Source: a virus (Duplodnaviria; Heunggongvirae; Uroviricota; Caudoviricetes). From it: a DNA stretch of 18,165 bases. The notes below the pieces were generated by a model. The model was not told where the DNA came from and searched no databases. It saw nothing but the letters and a program-made list of their open reading frames with translations. Position numbers and translations under genes: made by a program. The stretch lies in the IMG/VR virus record IMGVR_UViG_2681813004_000010; one strand, given 5' to 3'. Below, piece after piece: positions 1 through 17,807 of this stretch. Every line of letters starts with the position of its first letter. Positions within the stretch are counted from its first letter, which is position 1.

Positions 1-2948
<2,948 letters not shown>

Positions 2949-2968
<20 letters not shown>

Positions 2969-4268
2969 TCTCCCGCATATTGCCAGTATGGCCTTTAATG
3001 AGCCGCTGATGCTTGAACCCGCCTATGCGCGGGTTTTCTTTTGTGCGCTTGCAGGCCAGCTTGGGATCAGCCGCCTGACGGATGCAGTATCCGGCGACAG
3101 CCTGACTGCCGGAGAGGCACCCGCGGCGCTGGCGTTATCCGGTGATGATGACGGACCACGACAGGCCCGGAGTTATCAGGTCATGAACGGCATCGCCGTG
3201 CTGCCGGTGTCCGGTACGCTGGTCAGCCGGACGCGGGCGCTGCAGCCGTATTCGGGGATGACCGGTTACAACGGCATTATCGCCCGTCTGCAACAGGCTG
3301 CCAGCGACCCGATGGTGGACGGCATTCTGCTCGATATGGACACACCGGGCGGAATGGTGGCGGGAGCATTTGACTGTGCTGACATCATCGCCCGTGTGCG
3401 TGACATAAAACCGGTATGGGCGCTGGCCAACGACATGAACTGCAGTGCAGGTCAGCTGCTTGCCAGCGCCGCCTCCCGGCGTCTGGTCACGCAGACCGCC
3501 CGGACAGGCTCCATCGGCGTCATGATGGCTCACAGTAATTACGGTGCTGCCCTGGAGAAACAGGGCGTGGAAATCACGCTGATTTACAGCGGCAGCCATA
3601 AGGTGGATGGCAACCCCTACAGCCATCTACCGGGTGATGTCCGGGAAACACTGCAGTCCCGGATGGATGCAACCCGCCGGATGTTTGCGCAGAAGGTGTC
3701 GGCATATACCGGCCTGTCCGTGCAGGCTGTGCTGGATACCGAGGCTGCAGTGTACAGCGGTCAGGAGGCCATTGATGCCGGACTGGCTGATGAACTTGTC
3801 AACAGCACCGATGCGATCACCGTTATGCGTGATGCACTGGATGCACGTAAATCCCGTCTCTCAGGAGGGCGAATGACCAAAGAGACTCAATCAACAACTG
3901 TTTCAGCCACTGCTTCGCAGGCTGACGTTACTGGCGTGGTGCCAGCGATGGAGGGCGAAAACGCCAGCGCGGCGCAGCCGGACGTGAACGCGCAGATCAC
4001 CGCTGCGGTTGCGGCAGAAAACAGCCGCATTATGGGGATCCTCAACTGTGAGGAGGCTCACGGACGCGAAGAACAGGCCCGCGTGCTGGCAGAAACCCCC
4101 GGTATGACCGTGGAAACGGCCCGCCGCATTCTGGCCGCAGCACCACAGAGTGCACAGGCGCGCAGTGATACTGCGCTGGATCGTCTGATGCAGGGGGCAC
4201 CGGCACCGCTGGCTGCAGGTAACCCGGCATCTGATGCCGTTAACGATTTGCTGAACACACCAGTGTAA
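2949..4268 (+). CDS. C: prohead protease / minor capsid protein gpC (S49 peptidase family), GTG start
   Basis: Translation from the GTG at 2949 reads (M)TAELRNLPHIASMAFNEPLMLEPAYARVFF…, matching lambda gpC (439 aa). The six-frame track's upstream start at 2814 is an extension running through the B 3' end. Confidence 0.85.
3663..4268 (+). CDS. Nu3: scaffolding protein Nu3, in-frame nested within the 3' part of C
   Basis: In-frame ATG at 3663 (MDATRRMFAQKVSAYTG…), 714 nt downstream of the C start, the same offset as lambda Nu3; shares the C stop. Confidence 0.6.
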   Translation: MDATRRMFAQKVSAYTGLSVQAVLDTEAAVYSGQEAIDAGLADELVNSTDAITVMRDALDARKSRLSGGRMTKETQSTTVSATASQADVTGVVPAMEGENASAAQPDVNAQITAAVAAENSRIMGILNCEEAHGREEQARVLAETPGMTVETARRILAAAPQSAQARSDTALDRLMQGAPAPLAAGNPASDAVNDLLNTPV

Positions 4269-4277
4269 GGGATGTTT

Positions 4278-4610
4278 ATGACGAGCAAAGAAACCTTTAC
4301 CCATTACCAGCCGCTGGGCAACAGTGACCCGGCTCATACCGCAACCGCGCCCGGCGGATTGAGTGCGAAAGCGTCTGCAATGACCCCGCTGATGCTGGAC
4401 ACCGCCACCCGTAAGCTGGTTGCGTGGGATGGCACCACCGACGGTGCTGCCGTTGGCATTCTTGCGGTTGCTGCTGACCAGACCAGCACCACGCTGACGT
4501 TCTACAAGTCCGGCACGTTCCGTTATGAGGATGTGCTCTGGCCGGAGGCTGCCAGCGACGAGACGAAAAAACGGACCGCGTTTGCCGGAACGGCAATCAG
4601 CATCGTTTAA
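4278..4610 (+). CDS. D: head decoration protein gpD
   Basis: 110-aa [30 protein letters not shown]…AISIV. SD AAGGGA 5 nt upstream of the ATG at 4278; the track start at 4272 is 2 codons too long. Confidence 0.9.
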
Positions 4611-4630
4611 CCTTACCCTTCATCACTAAA

Positions 4631-4652
4631 GGCCGCCTGTGCGGCTTTTTTT
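4631..4652 (+). terminator. D-E intergenic stem-loop with T-run (GCCGC-CTGT-GCGGC-TTTTTTT)
   Basis: Perfect 5-bp GC stem followed immediately by 7 T; the same intergenic hairpin I recall between lambda D and E. Probably an attenuator or mRNA processing element rather than a full terminator. Confidence 0.5.
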
Positions 4653-4665
4653 ACGGGATTTTTTT

Positions 4666-4941
4666 ATGTCGATGTACACAACCGCCCAGCTGCTGGCGGC
4701 AAATGAGCAGAAATTTAAGTTTGATCCGCTGTTTCTGCGTCTCTTTTTCCGTGAGAGCTATCCCTTCACCACGGAGAAAGTCTATCTCTCACAAATTCCG
4801 GGACTGGTAAACATGGCGCTGTACGTTTCGCCGATTGTTTCCGGTGAGGTTATCCGTTCCCGTGGCGGCTCCACCTCTGAATTTACGCCGGGATATGTCA
4901 AGCCGAAGCACTTAGCATGGCTTTCTGAGGCTTTCGTGTAG
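4666..4941 (+). pseudogene. E: major capsid protein gpE, 5' fragment (codons 1 to ~82, then 9 unrelated codons and a stop)
   Basis: MSMYTTAQLLAANEQKFKFDPLFLRLFFRESYPFTTEKVYLSQIPGLVNMALYVSPIVSGEVIRSRGGSTSEFTPGYVKPKH matches the lambda gpE N-terminus. After ~4911 the sequence becomes …LAWLSEAFV-stop and lambda collinearity ends. Intact gpE is 341 aa. Confidence 0.85.
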
Positions 4942-5073
4942 TTGCTGGTTTTTACACTTAATCTTTTGATAATAAAGAATAAGTTTATCTGGCGCTTTCA
5001 CTGGATTTTCCTCGTTATCTGTGTGTTGCAATCATCTCTGTATTGCAGCTTGTATTGCTTTTTGGGGCTAAAA

Positions 5074-6309
5074 ATGGCTGGTGAGAACAAACTGAGCGAC
5101 AAAGCACTTAAAGGATATCTGGGGAAACCCAGAGAAAAGCAGATCACCATTGCTGATGGAAAGGGGCTTTCTATTCGTGTGAGTACCAAGGGGGCTGTGA
5201 GCTTTGTTTTCTTCTACAGGTTAGCAGGTGGCCGGGCTGCTCCGGTCTGGCTAACGTTGGGTAAATATCCTGATATGTCACTCAAACAGGCAAGGGAAAA
5301 GCGCGACGAGTGCCGTGGTTGGTTGGCTGACAAACGTGATCCGCGTATCCAGATTAAGATTCAGGCTGAAGAACGCTTAAAGCCGGTCACAGTGGAGGAT
5401 GCACTAAATTACTGGTATGAAAATTACTGTAAGGTGCGTCGTAAAACTCATGCTGTAACGCTTGGCAGATTTCGAAAGCATATCTTTCCCTATATCGGTC
5501 ATTTGCCCGTAAATGACACTCACCTATATGAATGGCTGGACTGTTTTGACCGAATTAAACGTAATGCACCAGTTATGGCGGCGTATGTTTTTTCTGACAC
5601 TAAATTAGCTCTTCGTTTTTGTCGGGTACGCCAGTACGCGACGTGTGATGCTTTAAAGGATTTGCGCATGAGTGATGTGGGGCAGATTGCAGGTAAGCGG
5701 GATCGGGTTCTGGATGAAGCCGAACTGGGCCAGCTCTGGAAGGCAATTTTTGTCGAGCCTGATTTAAAACTAATGTCTGAATACACGCGAAAAATGTTTG
5801 TGCTTTGTACAGTATTTGGATGTCGAATGAGTGAAGCCCGATTATCAGAATGGAGCGAATGGGATCTCGAAAGTTGGGTTTGGACTGTACCAAAAGAACA
5901 CTCAAAAACCGGTGTTGAAATCGTCAGACCAGTACCTGAAATTCTACGACAGTGGGTAACGGATGTTCACGAAGAGACAAAACATACTGGTTATGTGCTG
6001 GGAAGTCTGCGAATTAGAGAAAGCGTAAGCAAGATTGGGGGGAAAATCGGTAAACGTTTGGGCCATGAAAAACAATGGTCACTACACGACCTTAGAAGAA
6101 CGCTATCTACTCATCTAAGTGATCTCGGTGTTGAATTTTATGTAGTAGAACAACTGTTAGGCCATGCGCTACCTGGCGTGGCAGGTGTTTACAACCGGAG
6201 TAAGTTTATGGCTAAAAAACTGGATGCTCTGGAACTCTGGACTACATATCTCAATAGCATCGCAGGTGCTGATTCAAAAGTGACAATCCTCAAACAAAAG
6301 GCTGGTTAA
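5074..6309 (+). CDS. int: tyrosine site-specific integrase, P4-type
   Basis: N-terminus (GKGLSIRVSTKGAVSFVFFYRLAGG…LTLGKYPDMSLKQAREKRDE) looks like the arm-binding domain of P4-like integrases. C-terminal catalytic region has …WSLHDLRRTLSTHL… and …LLGHALPGVAGVYNR (H-x-x-R and catalytic Tyr). The track start at 4942 is an extension; the ATG at 5074 is taken as the start by homology. Confidence 0.9.
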   Translation: MAGENKLSDKALKGYLGKPREKQITIADGKGLSIRVSTKGAVSFVFFYRLAGGRAAPVWLTLGKYPDMSLKQAREKRDECRGWLADKRDPRIQIKIQAEERLKPVTVEDALNYWYENYCKVRRKTHAVTLGRFRKHIFPYIGHLPVNDTHLYEWLDCFDRIKRNAPVMAAYVFSDTKLALRFCRVRQYATCDALKDLRMSDVGQIAGKRDRVLDEAELGQLWKAIFVEPDLKLMSEYTRKMFVLCTVFGCRMSEARLSEWSEWDLESWVWTVPKEHSKTGVEIVRPVPEILRQWVTDVHEETKHTGYVLGSLRIRESVSKIGGKIGKRLGHEKQWSLHDLRRTLSTHLSDLGVEFYVVEQLLGHALPGVAGVYNRSKFMAKKLDALELWTTYLNSIAGADSKVTILKQKAG

Positions 6310-6310
6310 C

Positions 6311-6541
6311 ATGAAAAAAATGGCAATTGTTGATAAAAAGGGTCTGGAGTACATTCCTAACATCGATCGTATGATCCGTGAGAAAGAATGTCGGGAGCTA
6401 ACCACTCTTGCGAACAGCACACGCTGGAAGCTGGAGAAGGAAGGAAAATTTCCTAAGCGGATCAAGATTGGTTCCACTGCTGTTGCATATCGTCTTTCAG
6501 AAGTGCAGGCATGGATTCGAGGTGAGTGGATTGAGAAATAA
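6311..6541 (+). CDS. alpA: AlpA-family HTH regulator / excisionase-like protein
   Basis: 76 aa, …ECRELTTLANSTRWKLEKEGKFPKRIKIGSTAVAYRLSEVQAWI…, the typical AlpA (prophage CP4-57 regulator) pattern. Lies immediately downstream of int, overlapping its stop. Confidence 0.8.
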   Translation: MKKMAIVDKKGLEYIPNIDRMIREKECRELTTLANSTRWKLEKEGKFPKRIKIGSTAVAYRLSEVQAWIRGEWIEK

Positions 6542-6555
6542 TATTTGGAGAATCT

Positions 6556-7473
6556 ATGAGTAGAATGATTAATACCTTGTGCCCTTATAGCCTTATCCCA
6601 TTAAATCAAATAGAACATAATGGAGAACATGTTTTATTAGCTGGATTAGGAGCTCCGGAAAGTTTTACTGTGAATGTTTCAAAAGAAGAAAATACACGAA
6701 TTAACGATTTGTTGGATGAACCATTCTTAGGAATGGAAATAATAAAATTACTCTCGTCTATTTCGGGTCTTCAATCAAGGAGTGGTGAAGTGAAGCCATT
6801 TTTTACTGGAATTACTGAGGGTGGAGATGCGGTGCATGTTAGGATGTCTCCTGGCGAAGTGACATTGAAAGTTAAAAGTCCAGTAGTGAAGGATAAAAAT
6901 AATAATATTGTTGCAGTAACTGGTTACGAAAAGGAGGTACAAGAAACTTTGTTATCAATCACAAAAAAATATGAAGCCAAGGGGTTTTCTGTAATTACTT
7001 CCGCTCCTATAAATCGAGAGGCTGAGATCAAGCTTAACTTCAATTTGGATATTGAATTATTAAATTATCAATATTTAAAGATGGCCTATCTTACAATGGT
7101 CTACGTATTTGGTGATCGCGGGATTAAGTGTCCGGCTGCGAATGAAATTAGAAAAATAATTCTGAATAAATCACCCCTGCCTTCAACTTTAAAAGGTGTT
7201 CGTTCTCTATCATGGGATGTCAATACTTTACCATTACTGCCAAATGTTGATACCCACAAACACATTGTTGCAAGTTTTAATATTCATGGGGAAGTAGTAT
7301 GTGCAGTGTCACTTTTTGGTGTATTTAATAAAGTATTTCTCATTGAAAATGAATTGGTGGATAAGGATAATGTTTTTGGTGAGATATATGAAGTCGACTA
7401 TAAAACAAGAAAAATCAATAGAACGGATATTGTTCAGCGCATTAATGAGGTTACAAAAAACGTACAGTTTTAA
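6556..7473 (+). CDS. hypothetical protein, AT-rich cargo gene (305 aa), function unknown
   Basis: Long ORF with a good SD (GGAGAA 5 nt upstream) and markedly lower GC than its neighbours. No family recognised by eye; N-terminus has C-x-Y … EH-x-GEH … GLG, faintly HNH-like, but I cannot confirm it. Followed by a hairpin/T-run. Confidence 0.6.
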   Translation: MSRMINTLCPYSLIPLNQIEHNGEHVLLAGLGAPESFTVNVSKEENTRINDLLDEPFLGMEIIKLLSSISGLQSRSGEVKPFFTGITEGGDAVHVRMSPGEVTLKVKSPVVKDKNNNIVAVTGYEKEVQETLLSITKKYEAKGFSVITSAPINREAEIKLNFNLDIELLNYQYLKMAYLTMVYVFGDRGIKCPAANEIRKIILNKSPLPSTLKGVRSLSWDVNTLPLLPNVDTHKHIVASFNIHGEVVCAVSLFGVFNKVFLIENELVDKDNVFGEIYEVDYKTRKINRTDIVQRINEVTKNVQF

Positions 7474-7490
7474 ATGTTAACTTAAAATCA

Positions 7491-7531
7491 ACTGATTTGA
7501 GAGTTTACTCAAATCAGTAACGATATTTTTT
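7491..7531 (+). terminator. stem-loop (ACTGATTTGAG / CTCAAATCAGT, 6-nt loop) followed by T6 run
   Basis: Perfect 11-bp inverted repeat at 7491-7501 and 7508-7518, 18 nt after the cargo stop; T-run at 7526-7531, slightly displaced from the stem, so not a textbook intrinsic terminator. Confidence 0.45.
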
Positions 7532-7635
7532 GTCAGGGTGGGAAATTAAACAAATAGTTCTCATATAGAGGTATGCACAGTATGTTGTAGAAGGTGTTAT
7601 GCGCCGGAGTACCCTACACTCTACGGCGCTGGTGG

Positions 7636-7815
7636 CTATTCCTGTTCTTTGGCCTTGCGGCGCTGGCGGTACTCAACTTCTCGTTTTAATGCTGCAGTGA
7701 CAAATTGTCCTGTACTTTCGCCAGGCATTTTTACTGCTTCAACATTGTCCATAACCTCATGCGGAACCCTTGCCGCAACGGTTTGTGATTTTGCGTTTAC
7801 TGCTTTTGTCGCCAT
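7636..7815 (-). CDS. small ribbon-helix-helix (CopG/Arc-like) regulator, putative island repressor
   Basis: Minus-strand ORF …MATKAVNAKSQTVAARVPHEVMDNVEAVKMPGESTGQFVTAALKREVEYRQRRKAKEQE has a beta-strand / helix / helix pattern typical of RHH proteins. Start chosen at the ATG with a GAGGG SD about 9 nt upstream; the track start at 7824 is three codons longer. Divergent from the replication operon. The overlapping plus-strand ORF 7649-7903 was rejected. Confidence 0.5.
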   Translation of the reverse strand: MATKAVNAKSQTVAARVPHEVMDNVEAVKMPGESTGQFVTAALKREVEYRQRRKAKEQE

Positions 7816-7866
7816 GTGGTGCATCCCTCAAAAAAAAACAAATGCAGTATGCAGGAAAAAAAATAA

Positions 7867-7918
7867 GTGTTCAACACTTGAAGTGTTCAACACCTTTGGT
7901 TAAATTGGTGTTCAACAC
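7867..7918. promoter_or_regulatory. three operator-like repeats GTGTTCAACAC in the divergent control region
   Basis: Exact 11-mers at 7867-7877, 7883-7893 and 7908-7918; the 11-mer is a near-palindrome (GTGTT-C-AACAC). Located between the minus-strand RHH gene and the plus-strand operon starting at 8016. Confidence 0.5.
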
Positions 7919-8015
7919 CTTGTTGATGCAATGTGCTTAAACGACGAAACCCGGCTGTGCGCTCACACTAACCGGGCTTCTAACCACCAACGATAGCAAC
8001 AGTATCGAGGTAGCT

Positions 8016-8219
8016 ATGAGAAATCATACCACACACCCGCAAGGGCGGGACCCGCACAACCTGAATAAATACATCTGGCGTTTTATCGCCCTGAGTACGG
8101 CACAACCGCGCGTGATTACCATCGAGGCCACCAGCGAACAGGAAGCCCGCCAGCAATCCCCAACTGGCTGCGTGATGATATTCGCCGCCCGTATTCGTCA
8201 GGAGGTGTGCCATGAATGA
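8016..8219 (+). CDS. hypothetical small protein (67 aa)
   Basis: ORF with GAGGT SD 6 nt upstream; first gene of a translationally coupled operon leading to the primase. No family assigned. Confidence 0.45.
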   Translation: MRNHTTHPQGRDPHNLNKYIWRFIALSTAQPRVITIEATSEQEARQQSPTGCVMIFAARIRQEVCHE

Positions 8220-8436
8220 TCTTTATTTTAAAGTGCTGACACATGCTGAAAACGCGCTCGTTTGTGGCAAAAATATGCGAGAAATCTTATCAACCTGGCT
8301 TGATGGGACAACAAATGCGGAACACGATGAACGGGATGCTAATTTAGCTGGAGCGTTAATTACGTTACTTGATCCTGTCATCAAAGAGCTGGATGAAGCT
8401 ATAAAAATACACGACCAGAGCTATACCGGAGAATAA
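8212..8436 (+). CDS. hypothetical small protein (74 aa)
   Basis: AGGAGGT SD 7 nt upstream; start overlaps the previous ORF's 3' end by 8 nt. Confidence 0.5.
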   Translation: MNDLYFKVLTHAENALVCGKNMREILSTWLDGTTNAEHDERDANLAGALITLLDPVIKELDEAIKIHDQSYTGE

Positions 8437-8439
8437 AAA

Positions 8440-8727
8440 ATGAAAAATAAATTTTCTGGCTTTATTGCCAGCGGTCAAACTCATTCAAAAATCAGCCTTG
8501 GGGATATTTTCAAAGACAGCTATGGCTATCGGGTAAAGATTATTTCGGTTGATGATCGTCGTGTCTCTTATTTGCGTGATGGTTATGATTTTGAATGTGT
8601 TATGCCGCGTCAGCAGTTCGAAAGAGATTTCATTCTGGTAAAAAATTGCAAGACAGATAATCAGAGGCGTGCCGCAGGCTATATCCGTAAAATTCGGGCA
8701 ATGTTAGTTGCCGGAGGTAACAAATGA
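8440..8727 (+). CDS. hypothetical small protein (95 aa)
   Basis: GGAGAA SD 6 nt upstream; stop overlaps the primase start (ATGA). Confidence 0.5.
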   Translation: MKNKFSGFIASGQTHSKISLGDIFKDSYGYRVKIISVDDRRVSYLRDGYDFECVMPRQQFERDFILVKNCKTDNQRRAAGYIRKIRAMLVAGGNK

Positions 8728-10544
8728 AACGTGCTCCGAACTTAAAATACCAACCGCGCGACAAAATGACGGAAGTCATCATTTTTGCTGGCAGTGATGC
8801 CTGGAGCCATGCAAAAGAATGGAATGAATGGGCAGGTAAGCATATTGCAGCAGATGATACACCACCAGTCATTCTGGGTACGGAACAACTGGAAAACCTG
8901 GATGATATGCAAATTATCGATGAAGGCCGTCATTATGTGCGTGTTTATCGTGCCGGAAAGATTGCAGAGAAAAGTCTGACGAAGGTTGCGACATTACTTG
9001 CTATTGCAGGCGTAAAGGAAGCACGTTGTTACCGTAGCTTTGTTGATCGAGAGCCTGAAGACTGGACTCCGCGCCTTGTCGGCCTAAAAGCTGAAGCGGA
9101 GCATGGGGAAAGTCTGGTGATTGAACTGCCAGTGAAGAAGGCTGAGCGCAAAAATGACGAGCGTGCTTCATCTTTGGCGTTGAATCAGATGGGGGCCAGC
9201 CAGCGCGGTGAAGTTCTCCTTGCACATTACGGCGGCGAACTGGCAATCAATGCCGACTCTGACACCGTTCATCATTACAACGGCGTTGTATGGGAGCCGG
9301 TTCAGGATAAAGAGTTACAGCGTGCTATGGCGCAGATTTTCATTGATGCGGAGATCAGCTATTCGCAGAACGCTATTAAATCGGCGGTAGATACCATGAA
9401 GTTAAGTTTGCCTGTAATGGGGAATACAGCCCGTAACCTGATTGGATTCAGTAACGGGGTATTTGATACCAGAACTGGTAATTTTCGGGAGCATAACAAA
9501 AACGACTGGTTGTTAATTGCCAGTGAATTACCTTTCAGCCCACCAGCAGAGGGGGAAACGCTGGCAACACATGCGCCGAATTTCTGGAAGTGGTTGCGCC
9601 GTTCGGTGGCTGAGAATGACCGCAAGGCAGATCGCGTACTGGCGGCATTATTCATGGTGCTGGCGAACCGGTACGACTGGCAGTTATTCATTGAGGTAAC
9701 AGGGCCGGGGGGAAGTGGTAAAAGTGTGATGGCGGAGATTTGCACCATGCTGGCGGGTAAGGCTAATACAGTATCAGCAAGCATGAAGGCGCTGGAAGAT
9801 GCAAGGGAACGTGCGTTAGTGGTTGGCTTTTCGCTGATTATCATGCCGGATATGACCCGCTACGCTGGTGATGGGGCAGGGATTAAGGCCATTACAGGCG
9901 GTGACAAGGTGGCAATTGACCCGAAACACAAAGCCCCCTATTCAACGCGTATTCCGGCAGTAGTACTGGCGGTTAACAATAACGCCATGTCATTCAGTGA
10001 CCGCAGCGGGGGGATCTCACGTCGTCGGGTGATATTCAATTTTTCGGAAGTTGTACCGGAGAACGAACGCGATTCGATGCTGGCGGAAAAAATAGAAGGT
10101 GAGCTGGCGGTAGTGATTCGTCATCTGCTTACACGGTTTGCTGATCAGGACGAAGCCAGACGCCTGTTATATGAGCAGCAGAAATCTGAAGAAGCACTGG
10201 CGATAAAGCGAGAGGGGGATTCGCTGGTGGACTTCTGCGGCTATCTCATGGCATCGGTAATGTGTGATGGCCTATTAGTGGGTAATGCTGAAATTGTGCC
10301 ATTCAGCCCACGCAGGTATCTCTATCATGCCTATCTGGCTTATATGAGGGCACATGGGTTTGGTAAACCTGTAACACTGACGCGCTTCGGTAAAGATATG
10401 CCGGGGGCAATGGCGGAATATGGCAGGGAGTATATGAAACGGAAAACGAAGCACGGTTTGCGTTCAAACGTGACACTGACGGAGGAATCAGAGGACTGGA
10501 TGCCATCATGTGTATCGGTCACTAATGACGATAGCAAAAATTAA
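8724..10544 (+). CDS. replication primase/helicase, P4-family (D5-like SF3 NTPase domain)
   Basis: 606 aa. Walker A FIEVTGPGGSGKSV, hydrophobic Walker B …LVVGFSLIIMPDM…, then …GIKAITGGDKVAIDPKHKAPYS…, typical of phage/plasmid P4-family primase C-terminal domains. GGAGGT SD; iteron origin immediately downstream. Confidence 0.8.
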   Translation: MKRAPNLKYQPRDKMTEVIIFAGSDAWSHAKEWNEWAGKHIAADDTPPVILGTEQLENLDDMQIIDEGRHYVRVYRAGKIAEKSLTKVATLLAIAGVKEARCYRSFVDREPEDWTPRLVGLKAEAEHGESLVIELPVKKAERKNDERASSLALNQMGASQRGEVLLAHYGGELAINADSDTVHHYNGVVWEPVQDKELQRAMAQIFIDAEISYSQNAIKSAVDTMKLSLPVMGNTARNLIGFSNGVFDTRTGNFREHNKNDWLLIASELPFSPPAEGETLATHAPNFWKWLRRSVAENDRKADRVLAALFMVLANRYDWQLFIEVTGPGGSGKSVMAEICTMLAGKANTVSASMKALEDARERALVVGFSLIIMPDMTRYAGDGAGIKAITGGDKVAIDPKHKAPYSTRIPAVVLAVNNNAMSFSDRSGGISRRRVIFNFSEVVPENERDSMLAEKIEGELAVVIRHLLTRFADQDEARRLLYEQQKSEEALAIKREGDSLVDFCGYLMASVMCDGLLVGNAEIVPFSPRRYLYHAYLAYMRAHGFGKPVTLTRFGKDMPGAMAEYGREYMKRKTKHGLRSNVTLTEESEDWMPSCVSVTNDDSKN

Positions 10545-10557
10545 ACTTATGGAATAA

Positions 10558-10780
10558 CTGTTCACCACTGTTCACCCTGTCATAAATATCTTTTATATCA
10601 GTATATTATAGGGTGAACAGTTATTTATGAACTGTTCACCAAACTATTCACTGTTCACCTTTTTGATTGTTTATTGAGCTTCAAGGGTGAACAGTGGTGA
10701 ACAGTTGGTGAATAGTTTTTGTGAAACTGTTCACCCATTAACATTATGAATTAAAAGAGAAAATATCAAAAGGTGAACAG
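10558..10780. repeat. iteron array / candidate replication origin (9-mer CTGTTCACC and complement GGTGAACAG)
   Basis: Perfect forward copies at 10558, 10568, 10632, 10651 and 10727; reverse copies at 10612, 10686, 10696 and 10772; plus degenerate copies (CTATTCAC, GGTGAATAG, GGTGAAGG). Embedded in AT-rich DNA directly after the primase gene. Confidence 0.7.
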
Positions 10781-10831
10781 GTGAAGGGTTAAAACGCAAA
10801 AATTTTAATTTACTGCTGTGAGATAAAGCCT

Positions 10832-11077
10832 ATGACAGCGAAGCACACAAAAAAATCACAATCGCACGCCCTTGATTTGACTGAACACTGGTTAAGGGTG
10901 TCGATAAAAATCATCGACCGCAACGCCGGGGAAGGATACGCGAAAGCACATCCCGAACTGATTAGCGCATTCATGACAACGGCGGCTGCAAACTTTGCCA
11001 CTCTGACCGAACGGGAGATTGCTGAAGCGGAGGAAGTGACAACAATCAATATTAAGTCCGGAGAGCAGGCAGCATGA
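10832..11077 (+). CDS. hypothetical protein (81 aa)
   Basis: ORF between ori and ssb; stop overlaps the ssb start (ATGA). Weak SD. No family recognised. Confidence 0.45.
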   Translation: MTAKHTKKSQSHALDLTEHWLRVSIKIIDRNAGEGYAKAHPELISAFMTTAAANFATLTEREIAEAEEVTTINIKSGEQAA

Positions 11078-11605
11078 CGGCGCAAATATCAGTTTACGGG
11101 CGGTTGGTGGACGACCCGCAGACAAAACAGACCAGCAAGGGCACCCCCATGACGCTGGCGCGTATGGCGGTATCACTGCCTTGCAGTCAGTCGGATGACG
11201 GTCAGGCGACGATGTGGTTATCTGTCCTGGCGTTTGGCAGACAAGCCGACGCGCTGGCAAAGCATCACAAATGCGAACTCCTGAGCGTGGCGGGTAACAT
11301 GCAGATGAGCCAGTGGACTGGACAGAACGGCGAAACGCGGCAGGGCTGGCAGGTTATCGCAGACAGCGTAATCAGTGCGCGATCGGTGCGACCGGGCGGC
11401 AAAACAGAACGGCGAAACGCGGCAGGGCTGGCAGGTTATCGCAGACAGCGTAATCAGTGCGCGATCGGTGCGACCGGGCGGCAAAAAAGGCCAACAGGGG
11501 CAGGCTACTGACGCACTGAACAGAGCAAAACAACAGGCAGATCAGCAAGGAAGCCAGCCACCAGTGGGAGATAATGAGCAATGGGGAGATGATATCCCAT
11601 TTTAA
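11074..11605 (+). pseudogene. ssb: single-stranded DNA-binding protein (SSB), frameshifted by an internal 82-bp tandem duplication
   Basis: N-terminal OB-fold-like sequence MTAQISVYGRLVDDPQTKQTSKGTPMTLARMAVSL…WLSVLAFGRQADALAKHH…. The canonical SSB C-terminal tail …QPPVGDNEQWGDDIPF is present but in the +1 frame (track ORF 11375-11605). Removing one 82-bp unit restores a single ~150-aa SSB. Confidence 0.7.
11322..11485. repeat. perfect tandem duplication, 2 x 82 bp
   Basis: Unit acagaacggcgaaacgcggcagggctggcaggttatcgcagacagcgtaatcagtgcgcgatcggtgcgaccgggcggcaaa occurs at 11322-11403 and again at 11404-11485. 82 is not a multiple of 3. Confidence 0.9.
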
Positions 11606-11624
11606 ATATTGCCAATAAAAAAAG

Positions 11625-11648
11625 GCCGGAAAAAATAAATTTTCCGGC
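11625..11648. terminator. A/T-rich hairpin (GCCGGAAA / TTTCCGGC) downstream of ssb
   Basis: 8-bp inverted repeat flanked by an A-run on the 5' side; no T-run on the 3' side, so only weakly terminator-like on the plus strand. Confidence 0.3.
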
Positions 11649-11822
11649 ATGCTACATAAATCCCGACCAAAGGGAGTGAATATATTAACACTAATTGTTC
11701 GCACTGAAGTTGTCACCCCAAAACTTTATACAACATTGCACTCGGTTGCATGTGTTCGCATGACAAATATCGGTGATAGCATATATCCACAATTATTTTT
11801 AATGAATGCAAAGAGGATGCGT

Positions 11823-12863
11823 ATGGTTGATTTATATTCGCCTACCCAGCTTGTACAGGTGGTTAATGCTGTAGATGTACAAAAACAACTAAATGCGTTG
11901 TTTACCAGTTTGTTTTTTACTCGCTCGGTAATGTTTGGATCGCGCGATATTATTCTTGATACAATCGACGATCCAAATATCCCAATTGCAGCGTTTTGTT
12001 CTCCTATGGTGGGTAGTAAAGTTTCACGTGACGAAGGGTACGAATCAAAAACAATTCGTCCAGGCTATATGAAGCCGAAAAGCAGCATTGATCCAAATAA
12101 GTTAGCTGTGCGCCCTGCTGGTGTATCACCTGAGCAATACAATGCTTTTGGGGCGCGTAATATTAAAGTTAAACAGGCGATTGTAAATCAAGCTAAAGCT
12201 ATTCGTGCACGTATTGAATGGCTTGCCGTTCAGGCAATCACAACGGGGAAAAATATCATTGAGGGCGATGGTATTGAACGTTATGAGCTGGACTGGAATA
12301 TTAAACCACAAAATATCATCACTCAGTCTGGCGGTACTGAGTGGTCAGGTAAGGATAAAGAAACTTTTGATCCAAATGATGATATTGAGAGCTACGCAGA
12401 ATTTAGTGAGGGCGTCACTAATATCATCATTATGGGCGGTAATGTATGGAAGAAATACCGTTCATTCAGAGCGATAAAAGAGGCTCTGGATACCCGTCGT
12501 GGTTCTAATTCCGAACTGGAAACGGCCCTTAAAGACCTTGGTGATTCGGTGAGTTTTAAAGGATATATGGGCGATGTTGCGATTGTTGTTTACAGCGGGC
12601 GTTATACCGACGAGGACGGAACTGAAAAACATTTCCTTGATCCTGATTTGATGGTGCTTGGCAATACGGCTCTTCAGGGGATTGTCGCCTATGGCGGTAT
12701 TCAGGATCCGGAGCTAATCCGAATGGGGCTGACTAAAGCCGAACTTGCACCGAAAAACTATATTGTGCCTGGTGATCCGGCTATTGAATATGTGCAGACA
12801 CATTCAGCACCACAGCCAATACCGGCCCGCATCAATCGTTTTGTTACCGTTCGCATTGGCTAA
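11823..12863 (+). CDS. major capsid protein homolog (lambda gpE-like, HK97-fold) encoded by the island
   Basis: 346 aa. …NIITQSGGTEWSGKDKETFDPNDDIESYA… and …YRSFRAIKEALDTRRGSNSELETALKDLGDSVSFKGYMGDVAIVVYSGRY… align closely with lambda gpE (…NITQSGGTEWSKRDKSTYDPTDDIEAYA…, …FRSFKAVKEKLDTRRGSNSELETAVKDLGKAVSYKGMYGDVAIVVYSGQY…); the ends are more divergent. Start chosen at the ATG with an AAGAGGA SD; the track start at 11649 is an extension. Confidence 0.8.
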   Translation: MVDLYSPTQLVQVVNAVDVQKQLNALFTSLFFTRSVMFGSRDIILDTIDDPNIPIAAFCSPMVGSKVSRDEGYESKTIRPGYMKPKSSIDPNKLAVRPAGVSPEQYNAFGARNIKVKQAIVNQAKAIRARIEWLAVQAITTGKNIIEGDGIERYELDWNIKPQNIITQSGGTEWSGKDKETFDPNDDIESYAEFSEGVTNIIIMGGNVWKKYRSFRAIKEALDTRRGSNSELETALKDLGDSVSFKGYMGDVAIVVYSGRYTDEDGTEKHFLDPDLMVLGNTALQGIVAYGGIQDPELIRMGLTKAELAPKNYIVPGDPAIEYVQTHSAPQPIPARINRFVTVRIG

Positions 12864-12872
12864 GGGGGAGCA

Positions 12873-13214
12873 ATGGCTACTCATTACACTGAACTCATGG
12901 CTGGCACTGAAGCACTGGTGACTACGCTGGGGATATTTTCAGCTAATAAAGGGGTAATTCCTGCATTTACGCCACTGATGCAGGAAGATGCAACAGGTGC
13001 ACTGGTGGTATGGGATGGTTCGAGCGTAGGTAAAGCGGTTTATGTTTCCGCTGTACAAATCGACACCGCGAAAAAAACACAGGCTCAGGTCTATAAGACA
13101 GGTGTCTTAAATGTTGATGCTCTGAACTGGCCTGAGTCTGTTAAAGAACTGTCAGTAAAGGTTGCAGCGTTTGTTGGCTCAGGTATTTCTGTTCAGCCGC
13201 TGGCTCGTGTGTAA
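12873..13214 (+). CDS. head decoration protein homolog (lambda gpD-like)
   Basis: 113 aa. …FTPLMQEDATGALVVWDGSSVGKAVYVSAV…VYKTGVLNVDALNWPESVKELSVKVAAFVGSGISV parallels lambda gpD …MTPLMLDT…[19 protein letters not shown]…[36 protein letters not shown]. Strong SD (AAGGGGGAG). Confidence 0.7.
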   Translation: MATHYTELMAGTEALVTTLGIFSANKGVIPAFTPLMQEDATGALVVWDGSSVGKAVYVSAVQIDTAKKTQAQVYKTGVLNVDALNWPESVKELSVKVAAFVGSGISVQPLARV

Positions 13215-13225
13215 AGGGGGATACA

Positions 13226-13609
13226 ATGCAGAATGATTACAATGACCTTAAGCCAATTGCCGAAATGATGTACCCGAATCCAGCTGTAGAGGAATTAAAA
13301 GCTATCGCTGACAAAATGTGTTTAAGCGAGCGCCTTGTTGATATGAATCAGGTGATGGAAATTACAACCCTGAGTCGGCGTACACTGCTAAACCTTGAGG
13401 CTAGTGGAGAGTTCCCGGAGCGTGTGCAGGTTACGGAAGGGCGTAAGGCCTGGTATTTAAGTGAAGTGATCGACTGGATAAATAATATTCCTCGCGCTTC
13501 TGAATATTGCCGCGTACCTGTCCCAAAAAAGCCAGATGCGGCGCTATGCCTCAAGATTGAGCGTGTACGCCGCAATGCACGGGATGGTCGCTATAAGCTG
13601 ATTGGTTGA
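13226..13609 (+). CDS. AlpA-like HTH protein with N-terminal extension (127 aa)
   Basis: …MNQVMEITTLSRRTLLNLEASGEFPERVQVTEGRKAWYLSEVIDWI… fits the AlpA-family HTH. Strong SD (AAGGGGGA). Ends about 10-30 bp before the cos-flanking homology begins. Confidence 0.6.
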   Translation: MQNDYNDLKPIAEMMYPNPAVEELKAIADKMCLSERLVDMNQVMEITTLSRRTLLNLEASGEFPERVQVTEGRKAWYLSEVIDWINNIPRASEYCRVPVPKKPDAALCLKIERVRRNARDGRYKLIG

Positions 13610-13617
13610 TGAAATTA

Positions 13618-13854
13618 GGGCCCGCTCTGGCTGGCGGGTCCTTTCCGGCGATCTGACAGGTTACGGGGCGGCGACCTCGCAGTTTTTCGCTATTTGTGAA
13701 AATTTTCCTGTTTAAGGCGTTTCCGTTCTTCTTCGCCGTAACTTAATGTTTTTATTAAAAACACCCCCTGAAAAGAAAGGAAACGACAGGTGCTAAAAAC
13801 AGGCTTTTTGGCCTCTGTCGTTTCCTTTCTCTGGTTTTGTCCGTGGAATGAACA
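13618..13854 (+). other. cos: lambda-type cos site (cosQ-like flank, cosN with 12-nt cohesive end GGGCGGCGACCT at ~13666-13677, cosB region up to Nu1)
   Basis: …gggtcctttccggcgatctgacaggttacg|gggcggcgacctcgc… matches my recollection of the lambda right-end / left-end junction; the downstream sequence up to the Nu1 ATG resembles the lambda cosB region with a few substitutions. Confidence 0.8.
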
Positions 13855-14400
13855 ATGGAAGCCAACAAAAAGCAGCTGGCTGACATTTTCGGTGCGAGTA
13901 TCCGTACCATTCAGAACTGGCAGGAGCAGGGAATGCCCGTTCTGCGAGGCGGTGGCAAGGGTAATGAGGTGCTTTATGACTCTGCCGCCGTCATAAAATG
14001 GTATGCCGAAAGGGATGCTGAAATTGAGAACGAAAAGCTGCGCCGGGAAGTTGAAGAACTGCGGCAGGCCAGCGAGACAGATCTCCAGCCAGGGACTATT
14101 GAGTACGAACGCCATCGACTTACGCGTGCGCAGGCCGACGCACAGGAGCTGAAAAATGCCAGAGACTCCGCTGAAGTGGTGGAAACCGCATTCTGTACTT
14201 TCGTGCTGTCGCGGATCGCAGGTGAAATTGCCAGTATTCTCGACGGGATCCCCCTGTCGGTGCAGCGGCGTTTTCCGGAACTGGAAAACCGACATGTTGA
14301 TTTCCTGAAACGGGATATCATCAAAGCCATGAACAAAGCAGCCGCGCTGGATGAACTGATATCGGGGTTGCTGAGTGAATATATCGAACAGTCAGGTTAA
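13855..14400 (+). CDS. Nu1: terminase small subunit Nu1
   Basis: 181 aa, MEANKKQLADIFGASIRTIQNWQEQGMPVLRGGGKGNEVLYDSAAVIKWYAERD…, near-identical to lambda Nu1 as I recall it. 26-nt overlap with A as in lambda. Confidence 0.92.
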   Translation: MEANKKQLADIFGASIRTIQNWQEQGMPVLRGGGKGNEVLYDSAAVIKWYAERDAEIENEKLRREVEELRQASETDLQPGTIEYERHRLTRAQADAQELKNARDSAEVVETAFCTFVLSRIAGEIASILDGIPLSVQRRFPELENRHVDFLKRDIIKAMNKAAALDELISGLLSEYIEQSG

Positions 14401-16114
14401 CAGGCTGCGGCATTTTGTCCGCGCCGGGCTTCGCTCACTGTTCAGGCCGGAGCCACAGACTGCCGTTGAATGGGCGGATGCTAATTACTATCTCCCGAAA
14501 GAATCCGCATACCAGGAAGGGTGCTGGGAAACACTGCCCTTTCAGCGGGCCATCATGAATGCGATGGGCAGCGACTACATCCGTGAGGTGAATGTGGTGA
14601 AGTCTGCCCGTGTCGGTTATTCCAAAATGCTGCTGGGTGTTTATGCCTACTTCATAGAGCATAAGCAACGCAACACACTTATCTGGTTGCCGACGGATGG
14701 TGATGCCGAGAACTTCATGAAAACTCACGTTGAGCCAACCATCCGTGATATTCCGTCGCTGCTGGCGCTGGCTCCGTGGTATGGCAAAAAGCACCGGGAT
14801 AACACGCTCACTATGAAGCGTTTCACCAATGGTCGTGGCTTCTGGTGCCTGGGCGGTAAAGCGGCAAAAAACTACCGTGAAAAGTCGGTGGATGTGGCGG
14901 GTTATGATGAACTTGCTGCCTTTGATGAGGATATTGAACAGGAAGGCTCTCCGACGTTCCTGGGCGATAAGCGTATTGAAGGCTCGGTCTGGCCAAAGTC
15001 CATCCGTGGCTCCACGCCCAAAGTGAGAGGCACCTGTCAGATTGAGCGTGCAGCCAGTGAATCCCCGCATTTTATGCGTTTTCATGTTGCCTGCCCGCAC
15101 TGCGGGGAGGAGCAGTACCTTAAATTTGGCGATAAAGAGACGCCGTTTGGCCTCAAATGGACGCCGGATGACCCCTCCAGCGTGTTTTATCTCTGTGAGC
15201 ATAATGCCTGCGTCATCCGTCAGCAGGAGCTGGACTTTACTGATGCCCGTTATATCTGCGAAAAGACCGGGATCTGGACCCGTGATGGCATTCTCTGGTT
15301 TTCGTCATCCGGTGAAGAGATTGAACCGCCTGACAGTGTGACCTTTCACATCTGGACGGCGTACAGCCCGTTCACCACCTGGGTGCAGATTGTCAAAGAC
15401 TGGATGAAGACGAAAGGGGATACGGGAAAACGTAAAACCTTCGTGAACACCACGCTCGGTGAGACGTGGGAAGCGAAAATCGGCGAACGTCCGGATGCTG
15501 AAGTGATGGCAGAGCGGAAAGAGTATTATTCAGCGCCCGTTCCTGATCGTGTGGCTTACCTGACCGCCGGTATCGACTCCCAGCTGGACCGCTACGAAAT
15601 GCGCGTATGGGGATGGGGGCCGGGTGAGGAAAGCTGGCTGATTGACCGGCAGATTATTATGGGCCGCCACGACGATGAACAGACGCTGCTGCGTGTGGAT
15701 GAGGCCATCAATAAAACCTATACCCGCCGGAATGGTGCAGAAATGTCGGTATCCCGTATCTGCTGGGATACTGGCGGGATTGACCCGACCATTGTGTATG
15801 AACGCTCGAAAAAACATGGGCTGTTCCGGGTGATCCCCATTAAAGGGGCATCCGTCTACGGAAAGCCGGTGGCCAGCATGCCACGTAAGCGAAACAAAAA
15901 CGGGGTTTACCTTACCGAAATCGGTACGGATACCGCGAAAGAGCAGATTTATAACCGCTTCACACTGACGCCGGAAGGGGATGAACCGCTTCCCGGTGCC
16001 GTTCACTTCCCGAATAACCCGGATATTTTTGATCTGACCGAAGCGCAGCAGCTGACGGCTGAAGAGCAGGTCGAAAAATGGGTGGATGGCAGGAAAAAAA
16101 GCGGTGTCTTATAA
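14375..16114 (+). pseudogene. A: terminase large subunit gpA, copy 2, truncated after codon ~575 (fused to E 3' sequence, ends …GRKK-SGVL-stop)
   Basis: MNISNSQVNRLRHFVRAGLRSLF… is collinear with lambda gpA through …EQVEKWVDGRKK, then reads 4 codons into E-derived sequence and stops. Copy 1 shows the normal continuation (…ILWDSKKRRNEALDCF…GEDE), so ~66 C-terminal codons are missing here. Confidence 0.85.
15134..16100 (+). repeat. direct repeat copy 2 (A gene segment), partner at 1-967
   Basis: See copy 1. The repeat ends at the A7 run (16094-16100), where copy 2 diverges into E sequence. Confidence 0.95.
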
Positions 16115-16415
16115 GGGAATGTATGGCGATGTGGCCATCGTCGTGTATTCCGGACAGTACGTGGAAAACGGCGTCAAAAAGAACTTCCTGCCGGACAACA
16201 CGATGGTGCTGGGGAACACTCAGGCACGCGGTCTGCGTACCTATGGCTGTATTCAGGATGCGGACGCACAGCGCGAAGGCATTAACGCCTCTGCCCGTTA
16301 CCCGAAAAACTGGGTGACCACCGGCGATCCGGCGCGTGAGTTCACCATGATTCAGTCAGCACCGCTGATGCTGCTGGCTGATCCTGATGAGTTCGTGTCC
16401 GTTCAACTGGCGTAA
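16098..16415 (+). pseudogene. E: major capsid protein gpE, 3' fragment (about codons 237-341)
   Basis: KAVSYKGMYGDVAIVVYSGQYVENGVKKNFLPDNTMVLGNTQARGLRTYGCIQDADAQREGINASARYPKNWVTTGDPAREFTMIQSAPLMLLADPDEFVSVQLA matches the lambda gpE C-terminus. It is joined in a different frame to A codon ~575 and has no own start except a fortuitous ATG at 16086. Confidence 0.85.
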
Positions 16416-16418
16416 TCA

Positions 16419-16432
16419 TGGCCCTTCGGGGC
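16419..16432 (+). other. E-FI intergenic stem-loop GGCCC-TTCG-GGGCC
   Basis: Perfect 5-bp GC stem with a TTCG tetraloop directly after the E stop; conserved lambda intergenic hairpin as far as I recall. Confidence 0.5.
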
Positions 16433-16456
16433 CATTTTCTCTCTGTGGAGGAGTTC

Positions 16457-16855
16457 ATGACGAAAGATGAACTGATTGCCCGTCTCCGCTCGCTGGGTGA
16501 ACAACTGAACCGTGATGTCAGCCTGACGGGGACGAAAGAAGAACTGGCGCTCCGTGTGGCAGAGCTGGAAGAGGAGCTTGATGACACGGATGACGCAGCC
16601 GGTCAGGACACGTCTGTCAGCCCGGAAAATGCGCTGACCGGACATGAAAATGAGGTGGTATCAGCGCAGCCGGATACCGTGATTCAGGATACGGCTGCTC
16701 TGGTCACGGTTGTGGCACTGGTGACGCTGCATACCGATGCACTTCACGCCACGCGGGATGAACCTGTGGCATTTGTGCTGCCGGGAACGGCGTTCCGTGT
16801 CTCTGCCGGTGTGGCAGCCGAAATGACAGAACGTGGCCTGGCCAGAATGCAATAA
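16457..16855 (+). CDS. FI: DNA packaging protein gpFI
   Basis: 132 aa, MTKDELIARLRSLGEQLNRDVSLTGTKEELALRVAELEEELDD…ERGLARMQ. GGAGGAG SD. The track start at 16418 is an extension through the hairpin. Confidence 0.88.
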   Translation: MTKDELIARLRSLGEQLNRDVSLTGTKEELALRVAELEEELDDTDDAAGQDTSVSPENALTGHENEVVSAQPDTVIQDTAALVTVVALVTLHTDALHATRDEPVAFVLPGTAFRVSAGVAAEMTERGLARMQ

Positions 16856-16866
16856 CGGGAGGCGCT

Positions 16867-17220
16867 GTGGCTGATTTCGATAACCTGTTCGATGCTGCCA
16901 TTGCCCGCGCCGATGAAACAATACGCGGGTACATGGGAACGTCAGCCACCATGACATCCGGTGAGCAGTCCGGTGCGGTGATACGTGGTGTTTTTGATGA
17001 CCCTGAAAATATCAGCTATGCCGGACAGGGCGTGCGCGTTGAAGGCTCCAGCCCGTCCCTGTTTGTCCGGACTGATGATGTGCGGCAGCTGCGGCGCGGC
17101 GACACGCTGACCATCGGTGAGGAAAACTTCTGGATAGACCGGATTTCGCCGGATGATGGCGGAAGTTGTCATCTCTGGCTTGGGCGTGGTGTGCCGCCTG
17201 CCGTTAACCGTCGTCGCTGA
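16867..17220 (+). CDS. FII: head-tail joining protein gpFII (GTG start)
   Basis: 117 aa, (M)ADFDNLFDAAIARADETIRGYMGTSATMTSGEQSGAVIRGVFDDPENISYAGQGVRVEG…, matching lambda gpFII. Confidence 0.88.
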   Translation: MADFDNLFDAAIARADETIRGYMGTSATMTSGEQSGAVIRGVFDDPENISYAGQGVRVEGSSPSLFVRTDDVRQLRRGDTLTIGEENFWIDRISPDDGGSCHLWLGRGVPPAVNRRR

Positions 17221-17231
17221 AAGGGGGGTGT

Positions 17232-17807
17232 ATGGCCATAAAAGGTCTTGAGCAGGCCGTTGAAAACCTCAGCCGTATCAGCAAAACGGCGGTGCCTGGT
17301 GCGTCAGCAATGGCCATTAACCGCGTGGCCGCAACGGCGATTAATCAGTCTTCGTCTCAGGTCGCCCGTGAAACCCGGGTGCCGAGAAAACTGGTTAAAG
17401 AGCGATCCAGACTGAAACGAGCTACGGTCAGAAATCCGAATGCAAAAATTATCGTTAACCGAGGTGATCTCCCTGCTATTAAGCTGGGGATCAGGATGCT
17501 TGGTCATCGCCCGAACAGCATACTCAAAGCCGGTCAGCATCGTTATCAGCGGGCATTCATCCAGCGATTAAATAATGGACGCTGGCATGTTATGCAACGT
17601 CTGCCAGAAGCACGGTATGCGAAGGGCAATGACGATAAGGGAAGGAAAAAGCGTAATCGTCTTCCCATTCAGGTGGTGAAAATTCCGATGGCGGTCCCAC
17701 TGAAACAGGCTTTTGATGAGAACGTTAACCGTATCCGGCGAGAACGTCTGCCAAAAGAACTGAGCTATGCGCTGAAACAACAACTGAGGATTGTGATAAA
17801 GCGATGA
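17232..17807 (+). CDS. Z: tail completion protein gpZ
   Basis: 191 aa, MAIKGLEQAVENLSRISKTAVPGA…; N- and C-terminal parts match lambda gpZ, the middle is somewhat divergent. Stop overlaps the U start. Confidence 0.85.
   Translation: MAIKGLEQAVENLSRISKTAVPGASAMAINRVAATAINQSSSQVARETRVPRKLVKERSRLKRATVRNPNAKIIVNRGDLPAIKLGIRMLGHRPNSILKAGQHRYQRAFIQRLNNGRWHVMQRLPEARYAKGNDDKGRKKRNRLPIQVVKIPMAVPLKQAFDENVNRIRRERLPKELSYALKQQLRIVIKR

Follow-up and report, generated by a model that had tools for sequence, protein, structure and literature searches.

What lies inside the capsid gene E of the lambda-like prophage on contig AOTC01000230.1, and where does it end? The stretch that we analyzed (the window) is this whole draft contig, 18,165 bp long, one of at least 230 contigs in assembly GCA_001447405.1 and filed as virus record IMGVR_UViG_2681813004_000010. 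An earlier note, made from the letters alone, had placed a satellite-type island there and called the arrangement unusual. Judged by sequence identity and gene order, the island belongs to the Eco567.11capE family of helper-embedded phage-inducible chromosomal islands (HE-PICIs); it is integrated at E:Phage_cap_E:80 of a lambda-like prophage and co-oriented with its late operon. The HE-PICI class was described by Tommasini, Mageeney and Williams (NAR Genomics and Bioinformatics 2023; PMC10111431), who reported 201 instances at E:Phage_cap_E:80 and estimated HE-PICI carriage at ~5.4% of E. coli genomes. The arrangement is already known, as a published class at its most frequent site, so the impression that it is unusual was not borne out; what is unusual in this copy is only the rearranged right end.

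Identity and insertion site of the island

Positions 1-4910 are collinear with the lambda-type late genes A (C-terminal part)-W-B-C/Nu3-D-E, at 99.3% identity to an annotated prophage of strain 980-2 and 99.2% identity to the uninterrupted prophage of strain F2_407_2_2. From its start at 4666, gene E agrees with phage E for exactly 82 codons, the last residues being TPGYVKPKH, and the identity to F2_407_2_2 breaks off at 4910. The claim that lambda collinearity ends at E codon 82 is therefore confirmed, with the break at 4910/4911. The corresponding E fragment in relatives is annotated as 'major capsid protein, missing C-terminus'. The features at this end of the island are the following.

4666..4911, + strand: helper capsid gene E, codons 1-82, interrupted by the insertion (match to phage E)
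4906..4910, + strand: attL crossover block AAGCA; the island begins at 4911/4912
5039..5058, + strand: doubled arm-type motif TGTATTGCagctTGTATTGC, the downstream copy typical of HE-PICI attP (one match, 0.01 expected)
5074-6309, + strand: tyrosine integrase (Pfam Arm-DNA-bind_3 and Phage_integrase)
6311-6541, + strand: AlpA (Pfam)

Past AAGCAC, the P′ arm is identical in the window and in Eco567.11capE (hereafter 11capE), the element of E. coli NRG857c that lies within the capsid gene of a lambdoid prophage (gene E) and carries a capsid gene of its own (PMC10111431). The doubled motif TGTATTGCnnnnTGTATTGC has been reported on both sides of the attP centre, at 132 +/- 2 bp on the downstream side and 81 +/- 2 bp on the upstream side (PMC10111431), and the arm motif at 5039-5058 begins 131 nucleotides (nt) from the attL core. 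The upstream copy, near attR, is not in the window and the P arm is missing; in strain 980-2 this second copy sits beside attR. An HE-PICI-clade integrase beside attL, followed by alpA, agrees with 11capE by sequence identity, and the same closeness extends across the island: integrase 99.5%, AlpA 96.1%, primase 99.8%, the island's own capsid protein E* 99.4%, its decoration protein D* 99.1%, and a 127-amino-acid (aa) helix-turn-helix (HTH) protein 100% identical. Overall, the island's proteins are 96-100% identical to those of 11capE. The same element, with intact attL and attR, occupies the same E codon in full prophages of strains 980-2, MB06231, SCU-102 and NRG857c, and a decayed copy is present in IAI39.

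The gene content is that of a Gram-negative PICI, with int, alpA, a primase-replication module with an origin, and cos, and with no lysis or tail genes. Four zones follow in order (integration, Bro/dynamic, replication and late), and all island genes are co-oriented with the helper head genes on the + strand, one small divergent gene excepted. The int-alpA-primase-iteron-ssb kit inside the head operon, splitting E, had been recognized from the letters alone, and both Pfam and the identity to 11capE confirm it; the profile calls for integrase (Arm-DNA-bind_3 and Phage_integrase) and primase (D5_N/DUF5906/Pox_D5) hold. The named genes are all there, and the list was incomplete, as E*, D* and a second AlpA-like gene had been overlooked. 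The island is AT-richer than its surroundings, as claimed (GC 0.33-0.50 versus 0.55-0.63 in the head genes). A tRNA attachment site was rejected, as the window holds no tRNA or tmRNA gene and integration is within E.

Could the island, instead of being a PICI, be an ordinary early or immunity region of the lambdoid kind, or a satellite of the P4 family? The P4-like arm-binding domain of the integrase, AlpA, the D5-type primase and the Icd-like gene annotated in relatives would suit such a reading. However, the stretch 4912-13617 contains neither cI/cro nor O/P, Q or a lysis gene, in line with the earlier view that this is not a lambdoid module. Annotations of every called gene, together with direct scans of ten island open reading frames (ORFs), gave no match to the Pfam families Psu, Sid or Delta, and an Rfam scan returned no match at the gathering score and no P4 CI/C4 or isrK RNA, so a P4-like satellite was rejected. 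Gene order is moreover shared with a described PICI to which the proteins are 96-100% identical. Gene content and the identity to 11capE already refute this reading, to which we give next to no credence. 'Satellite' was thus the right word for the island, while 'P4-type' was loose, its organization being that of Gram-negative PICIs.

The segment from the HTH gene to cos is present in 128 of 5,426 complete E. coli genomes, and the HTH protein itself, identical over all 127 aa, is listed in 14,336 blocks of an assembly collection. All ten contexts shown have E*-D*-HTH-cos-cargo and then FI-FII-Z-U, with the E remnant called as a gene in four. Intact relatives measure ~10.6-11.9 kb from attL to attR, against about 10-12 kb for Gram-negative PICIs (Fillol-Salom et al. 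2018), and extend 1.3-2.5 kb past cos, through a cargo slot and the second arm motif TGTATTGC, to attR, where E resumes from codon ~79. As a discovery the finding is small, a re-find of the commonest HE-PICI type, which a few percent of E. coli genomes carry.

The cargo slot between satellite cos and attR is variable (L001 32273-33689; L004 18775-21452; L005 13649-14791; L018 16279-18253; about 7600-9300 in L008-L017, these being numbered loci of our comparison). Its contents include a Nu1-derived gene, terS*, with DUF2971; DUF262/GmrSD_N with HEPN; a TIR-domain protein; AF_1680; DUF3892; and unnamed ORFs. In terS*, the first ~100 aa are nearly identical to Nu1 and the C-terminal half is ~45% identical. 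The slot looks like a hotspot for anti-phage defence.

The satellite cos and the rearranged right end

Two positions had been proposed for the right boundary of the island, ~13617 and ~16100. Neither is a natural end, as relatives run past cos to attR, which is absent here. The following features make up this region, together with the terminase segment at the contig start.

13634..13854, + strand: satellite cos, with cosQ, cosN (12-mer at 13666-13677) and cosB, in satellite-type flanks
13855..14400, + strand: hybrid Nu1 gene, satellite-type in its 5′ part (to at least 13925) and helper-type from 14049 at the latest
14375..16100, + strand: second copy of helper terminase gene A, codons 1-575 (4 mismatches to F2_407_2_2 over 14065-16100)
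16098..16100, + strand: A::E deletion junction, out of frame, with AAA as the only shared sequence
16101-16415, + strand: helper E codons 238-341, 100% identical to F2_407_2_2
1..1167, + strand: C-terminal part of the helper's terminase large subunit A, cut off by the contig start

The cosN 12-mer of the window is the helper-type GGGCGGCGACCT. In 15 of 15 related satellite loci examined (L001, L004, L018, L005, L006 and L008-L017) it is instead GGGCGTCAGGCG, embedded in otherwise lambda-like cosQ and cosB. GGGCGGCGACCT is the 12-mer of the helpers that host these satellites, in all three composites in which satellite and helper cos were compared (32080-32100 versus 17029-17047 in L001, 18582-18602 versus 3530-3548 in L004, and 16086-16106 versus 947-965 in L018). 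Among the loci examined, the satellite cos of the window alone carries the helper-type 12-mer. The helper-type cos noted earlier at the island's right edge is thus helper-type in this 12-mer, and it belongs to the island instead of lying outside it. Satellite-type bases stand on both sides of cosN (T13654, 12 nt upstream; A13681 and T13683, 4-6 nt downstream), and the cos region differs at 6 or more of 201 bases from each of the 128 complete-genome copies. This mosaic cannot be assembled from reads of either parent, and reads holding it must therefore exist. It reflects a true recombination between satellite cos and helper cos in this lineage, less than 400 nt from the switch described below. 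The HE-PICI paper (PMC10111431) does not mention cosN. We speculate that a private cosN may normally prevent joint use of the helper and embedded-satellite cos sites; a distinct satellite cohesive end could, if confirmed, explain how co-oriented cos sites 15 kb apart avoid interference.

The cosN patch aside, the window is satellite-type through 13925, ambiguous from 13926 to 14048 and helper-type from 14049-14087 on. Helper Nu1-A replaces the cargo slot: a full-length Nu1 is followed by A codons 1-575, which are joined to E codon 237/238 through a 3-nt microhomology. The A frame ends five codons past the junction, and the fusion is out of frame. The A::E junction had thus been put in the right place, near 16100, but it is not the natural end of the island. 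The P arm, attR, the cargo slot and E codons 83-236 are nowhere in the window. A search for att direct repeats at the candidate ends yielded the attL core and one arm motif, with no flanking repeat, and the attR whose identity block would restore E on excision is absent from this copy. The missing attR marks a damaged or mis-assembled copy, not another family.

Which of the two is it? Setting aside the W-B-C patch, all phage parts of the window are of one phage type, F2_407_2_2-like (99.9-100%), with 100% identity over 16098-18165 (2,068 nt) and 3825-4910, 99.9% over A, and one mismatch across 1-1338. Bases 15134-16100 repeat bases 1-967 (967 nt, 99.9% identical), the only mismatch being T at 924 and G at 16057. 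We consider that the right-end structure as deposited is probably real. The sequence shows what the element is, its site and gene content, the mosaic at cos and the lack of attR; the recombination mechanism and the fidelity of the contig to the chromosome are matters that we infer. A satellite cos/Nu1-like segment would have recombined with a helper cos-Nu1-A segment, the switch falling somewhere in 13926-14049, and cosN would lie under a short conversion patch of helper type. The whole could be a single recombination or template-switch event, with entry via cos/Nu1 homology and exit via the microhomology at A575/E238. The A::E junction is not a k-mer join, because the overlap is only 3 nt. 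Identity between E* and E as the cause of a contig break or of a false join at E238 was rejected, since the longest word common to the two is 14 nt. A correct contig would mean that the satellite is trapped, lacking attR, unable to excise or restore E, and with a frameshifted ssb.

Several points weigh against a faithful contig. A single draft contig is the sole source for the rearranged right end; the satellite-to-Nu1-to-A join occurs in none of the 5,426 complete genomes, and neither the hybrid Nu1 nor the truncated A protein is on any other contig in the gene-context collection (153 billion gene positions). The contig begins within the 967-nt segment that recurs inside it, and a perfect 82-bp duplication in ssb could be a gap-closing artefact. 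In addition, deletions that join A to E in prophages free of any satellite, e.g. in strain CUPS03, make a second, deleted prophage in the same strain plausible.

A rival account is that the satellite and attL are real and the right half of the contig is mis-joined. The strain would then hold a normal HE-PICI/helper composite, cargo and attR included, plus a second F2_407_2_2-like prophage with an A-to-E deletion, and the assembler or gap-closer would have crossed from one to the other via the ~120-430 nt common to the satellite and phage cos/Nu1. An internal repeat at the edge of a draft contig, a join unique in both collections, A′::′E deletions that arose independently elsewhere, and a tandem duplication of the kind made by gap-closing tools all fit this account. 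Yet the unambiguous stretch common to both sides of the switch is only ~123 nt (13926-14049), below usual insert sizes; the helper-type cosN patch in satellite flanks is not buildable from the reads of either parent; and two nearly identical prophages in one strain are required. We take this possibility seriously while thinking it somewhat unlikely.

In several lambdoid prophages without a satellite, independent deletions have joined a shortened A either to E's C-terminal part or to another head gene, with differing junctions (for example, strain CUPS03, L003 14742-16934). Loss of W-B-C-D appears from these cases to be a recurrent form of prophage decay.

The repeat itself suggests another arrangement, in which the local joins are real and the 2-kb repeat is mispaired. 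The satellite plus Nu1-A-W-B-C-D-E′ would then form a closed 15,133-bp circle or a tandem array, and the A::E deletion would lie in the chromosomal prophage, downstream of an ordinary helper cos. Position 1 corresponds to position 15134, and the period of 15,133 nt equals the spacing of the helper and satellite cos sites; a single base, 43 nt from the fork, distinguishes the two A copies, and short reads could not have phased a 2-kb repeat. However, a circle of this kind would have attL without attP and lack any known maintenance system, replication of PICIs is normally kept repressed, and the deposited contig pairs the repeat the other way. We regard this arrangement as highly improbable.

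Returning to the deposited structure, a correct contig might catch the capture of helper late genes by a helper-embedded satellite in progress, a reading that we think distinctly unlikely. Homology at cos/Nu1 would have let helper terminase DNA be copied into the late zone, and the same event would have converted the private cohesive end GGGCGTCAGGCG to the helper type. If so, the copy, 99.9% identical to the resident one, would be the direct source-recipient pair that the 2023 paper said it lacked. Should an upstream helper cos also exist (we assume one outside the window), two cos sites compatible with each other would stand 15.1 kb apart. They would enclose int, the replication genes, E*, D* and a complete set of head genes (Nu1-A-W-B-C-D), a unit that could be packaged as a proto 'capsid-forming' satellite. 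The 2023 paper left the capture mechanism open; confirmation would supply a concrete route of satellite-helper exchange, via cos/Nu1 homology and not the integrase.

Remaining genes and the proposed life cycle

The other features of the island fall into a variable ('Bro/dynamic') zone (6556..8219), a replication zone (8212..11511) and a late zone (11823..13609).

6556-7473, + strand: AT-rich 305-aa ORF, family not assigned (variable zone)
7636-7824, − strand: YlcI/YnfO-like small divergent gene (variable zone)
7867-7921, no strand given: three GTGTTCAACAC palindromes after the divergent gene (variable zone)
8016-8219, + strand: Icd-like/repressor-family gene (variable zone)
8212-8436, + strand: hypothetical gene (replication zone)
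8440-8727, + strand: DUF4222 gene (replication zone)
8724-10544, + strand: D5-type primase-helicase (Pfam D5_N/DUF5906/Pox_D5)
10558-10780, + strand: iteron origin, ten GGTGAACAG (replication zone)
10832-11077, + strand: hypothetical gene (replication zone)
11074-11511, + strand: ssb, frameshifted by an 82-bp tandem duplication (replication zone)
11823-12863, + strand: E-family capsid gene E*, full-length (Phage_cap_E, E = 2e-41)
12873-13214, + strand: gpD-family decoration gene D* (late zone)
13226-13609, + strand: second AlpA-like HTH gene, 127 aa (PHROG excisionase/regulator)

Across the whole window, GGTGAACAG has 21 matches where 3.9 are expected, a count reached by 0 of 200 shuffles. E* and helper E share 48% identity, D* and helper D 40%.

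The 305-aa ORF gave no Pfam, PADLOC or PHROG match and may be an uncharacterized accessory or defence gene. Its GC is 0.33-0.37, and it is common to the copies in 980-2 and MB06231 (WP_141073898.1) and absent from the 11capE of NRG857c. Bro-N had no match in the variable zone of the window and was found in the relative L014. A relaxed Rfam scan of 6500-8800 produced a weak match to the SymR antitoxin RNA family at 7943-8015 on the − strand (30 bits versus a gathering score of 61, E = 0.004), antisense to the Icd-like gene, just upstream of its start, and beside the three GTGTTCAACAC palindromes. The YlcI/YnfO annotation is also that of a gene just upstream of the lambdoid helpers' own cos (L001 16600-16833 and L019 4725-4949, both on the − strand).

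The duplication in ssb (11322-11485) is a perfect repeat of 82 bp that shifts the frame, so that the acidic ...DDIPF tail is lost from the ssb frame; the tail persists in another frame at 11375-11605. The duplication is found neither in 980-2 or NRG857c nor in any best complete-genome match. It reflects either a trapped satellite that is decaying or an artefact of assembly or gap closing.

The remaining helper genes flank the island on both sides.

1164-1370, + strand: W, collinear with the annotated 980-2 prophage
1367-2968, + strand: portal B, collinear with the annotated 980-2 prophage
2949-4268, + strand: C/Nu3, S49 protease-scaffold, collinear with the annotated 980-2 prophage
4278-4610, + strand: decoration D (Pfam HDPD), collinear with the 980-2 prophage
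16457-16855, + strand: FI, part of the stretch 100% identical to F2_407_2_2
16867-17220, + strand: FII, part of the same stretch
17232-17807, + strand: Z, part of the same stretch
after Z, up to 18165, + strand: U, start only, part of the same stretch

Relative to F2_407_2_2, W-B-C (1339-3824) carries 38 substitutions (~1.5%), while A, D, E′ and E-U are 99.9-100% identical, which marks a mosaic patch in the head genes. At the contig start, a comparison of SNP (single-nucleotide polymorphism) density with three helper phages gave no clear mosaic boundary.

How might such an element live inside its helper? After mitomycin C induction of the 11capE host, the helper-satellite composite leaves the chromosome and replicates, as seen by quantitative PCR and deep sequencing, and 11capE excises later than the composite, with E restored only then; virions were not recovered even for this type element (PMC10111431). 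Extrapolating from these observations to the window element, we propose that the helper capsid gene would stay split until Int and AlpA excise the satellite. Replication would be passive with the helper and also autonomous, by the satellite's own primase, iterons and SSB, and co-orientation would let helper late transcription read through the satellite. Helper terminase would then cut the satellite cosQ-cosN-cosB, leading to packaging, and we hypothesize that E* and D* either replace or remodel the helper capsid.

Comparison with known systems

The window element shares with 11capE the insertion codon in E, the gene order, the kind of cos and an arm motif at about +132. It differs from 11capE in its variable zone, which is unrelated between the two over window positions 6530-8071, in its frameshifted ssb, and in its helper-type cosN 12-mer, 11capE having GGGCGTCAGGCG. 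Where 11capE continues into a truncated Nu1, HEPN and DUF262 cargo, the P arm and attR, the window has a full-length Nu1 and A codons 1-575 fused to E codon 238. The copies in 980-2, MB06231 and SCU-102 match the window from the helper head genes, across the whole satellite, as far as mid-Nu1, at 99.3-99.6% nucleotide identity and with the 305-aa ORF included. In these copies a Nu1-like terS* whose C-terminal half diverges comes next, and then DUF2971, attR and E codons 79-341; the FI-U genes of their helpers are 90-93% identical to those of the window helper.

A parallel for the right end may be Eco6102.18.E_Phage_cap_E_80 (CP023644), an elongated HE-PICI that was cited as evidence of helper late-gene capture in a paper that also found many helpers to look truncated (PMC10111431). 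According to its published description, it resembles the window in having an E:80 satellite followed by helper late-gene DNA in a non-phage order. By the same description it differs in that its 'attR' is intact E sequence and its captured segments abut at E:80, whereas the window joins at the cos/Nu1 homology and at A575::E238.

Capsid-forming PICIs (cf-PICIs; Alqurainy et al. 2023, preprint 10.1101/2022.09.08.507074) are likewise satellites with a capsid protein of their own. They encode a full head and packaging set (TerS, TerL, portal, protease, capsid and connectors), whereas canonical members of the 11capE family are limited to E*, D* and, in some cases, terS*. We rejected a cf-PICI assignment because intact relatives hold only these genes between attL and attR; the window does not carry a cf-PICI gene set, since A, W, B, C and D in it belong to the helper.

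EcCICFT073-type Gram-negative PICIs (Fillol-Salom 2018, 2019; PMC9026076) have the same int-alpA-regulators-primase-ori-late zone-cos layout, a lambda-like helper and cos packaging. They differ in occupying chromosomal sites, and their cosQ and cosN are almost identical to the helper's, with no helper-type cosB and with rpp downstream of cos (PMC9026076). A PDB sequence search with the 127-aa HTH protein, which lies upstream of cos, detected no Rpp-like sequence; an AlpA protein was its only match, and the HTH protein was rejected as an Rpp. Rpp-type redirection of packaging was also rejected, given the helper-like cosB and the Nu1-type gene after cos. In contrast to the EcCICFT073 type, the 11capE family retains a cosB resembling that of the helper, differs in the cosN 12-mer, and carries a Nu1-derived gene or defence-type cargo after cos.

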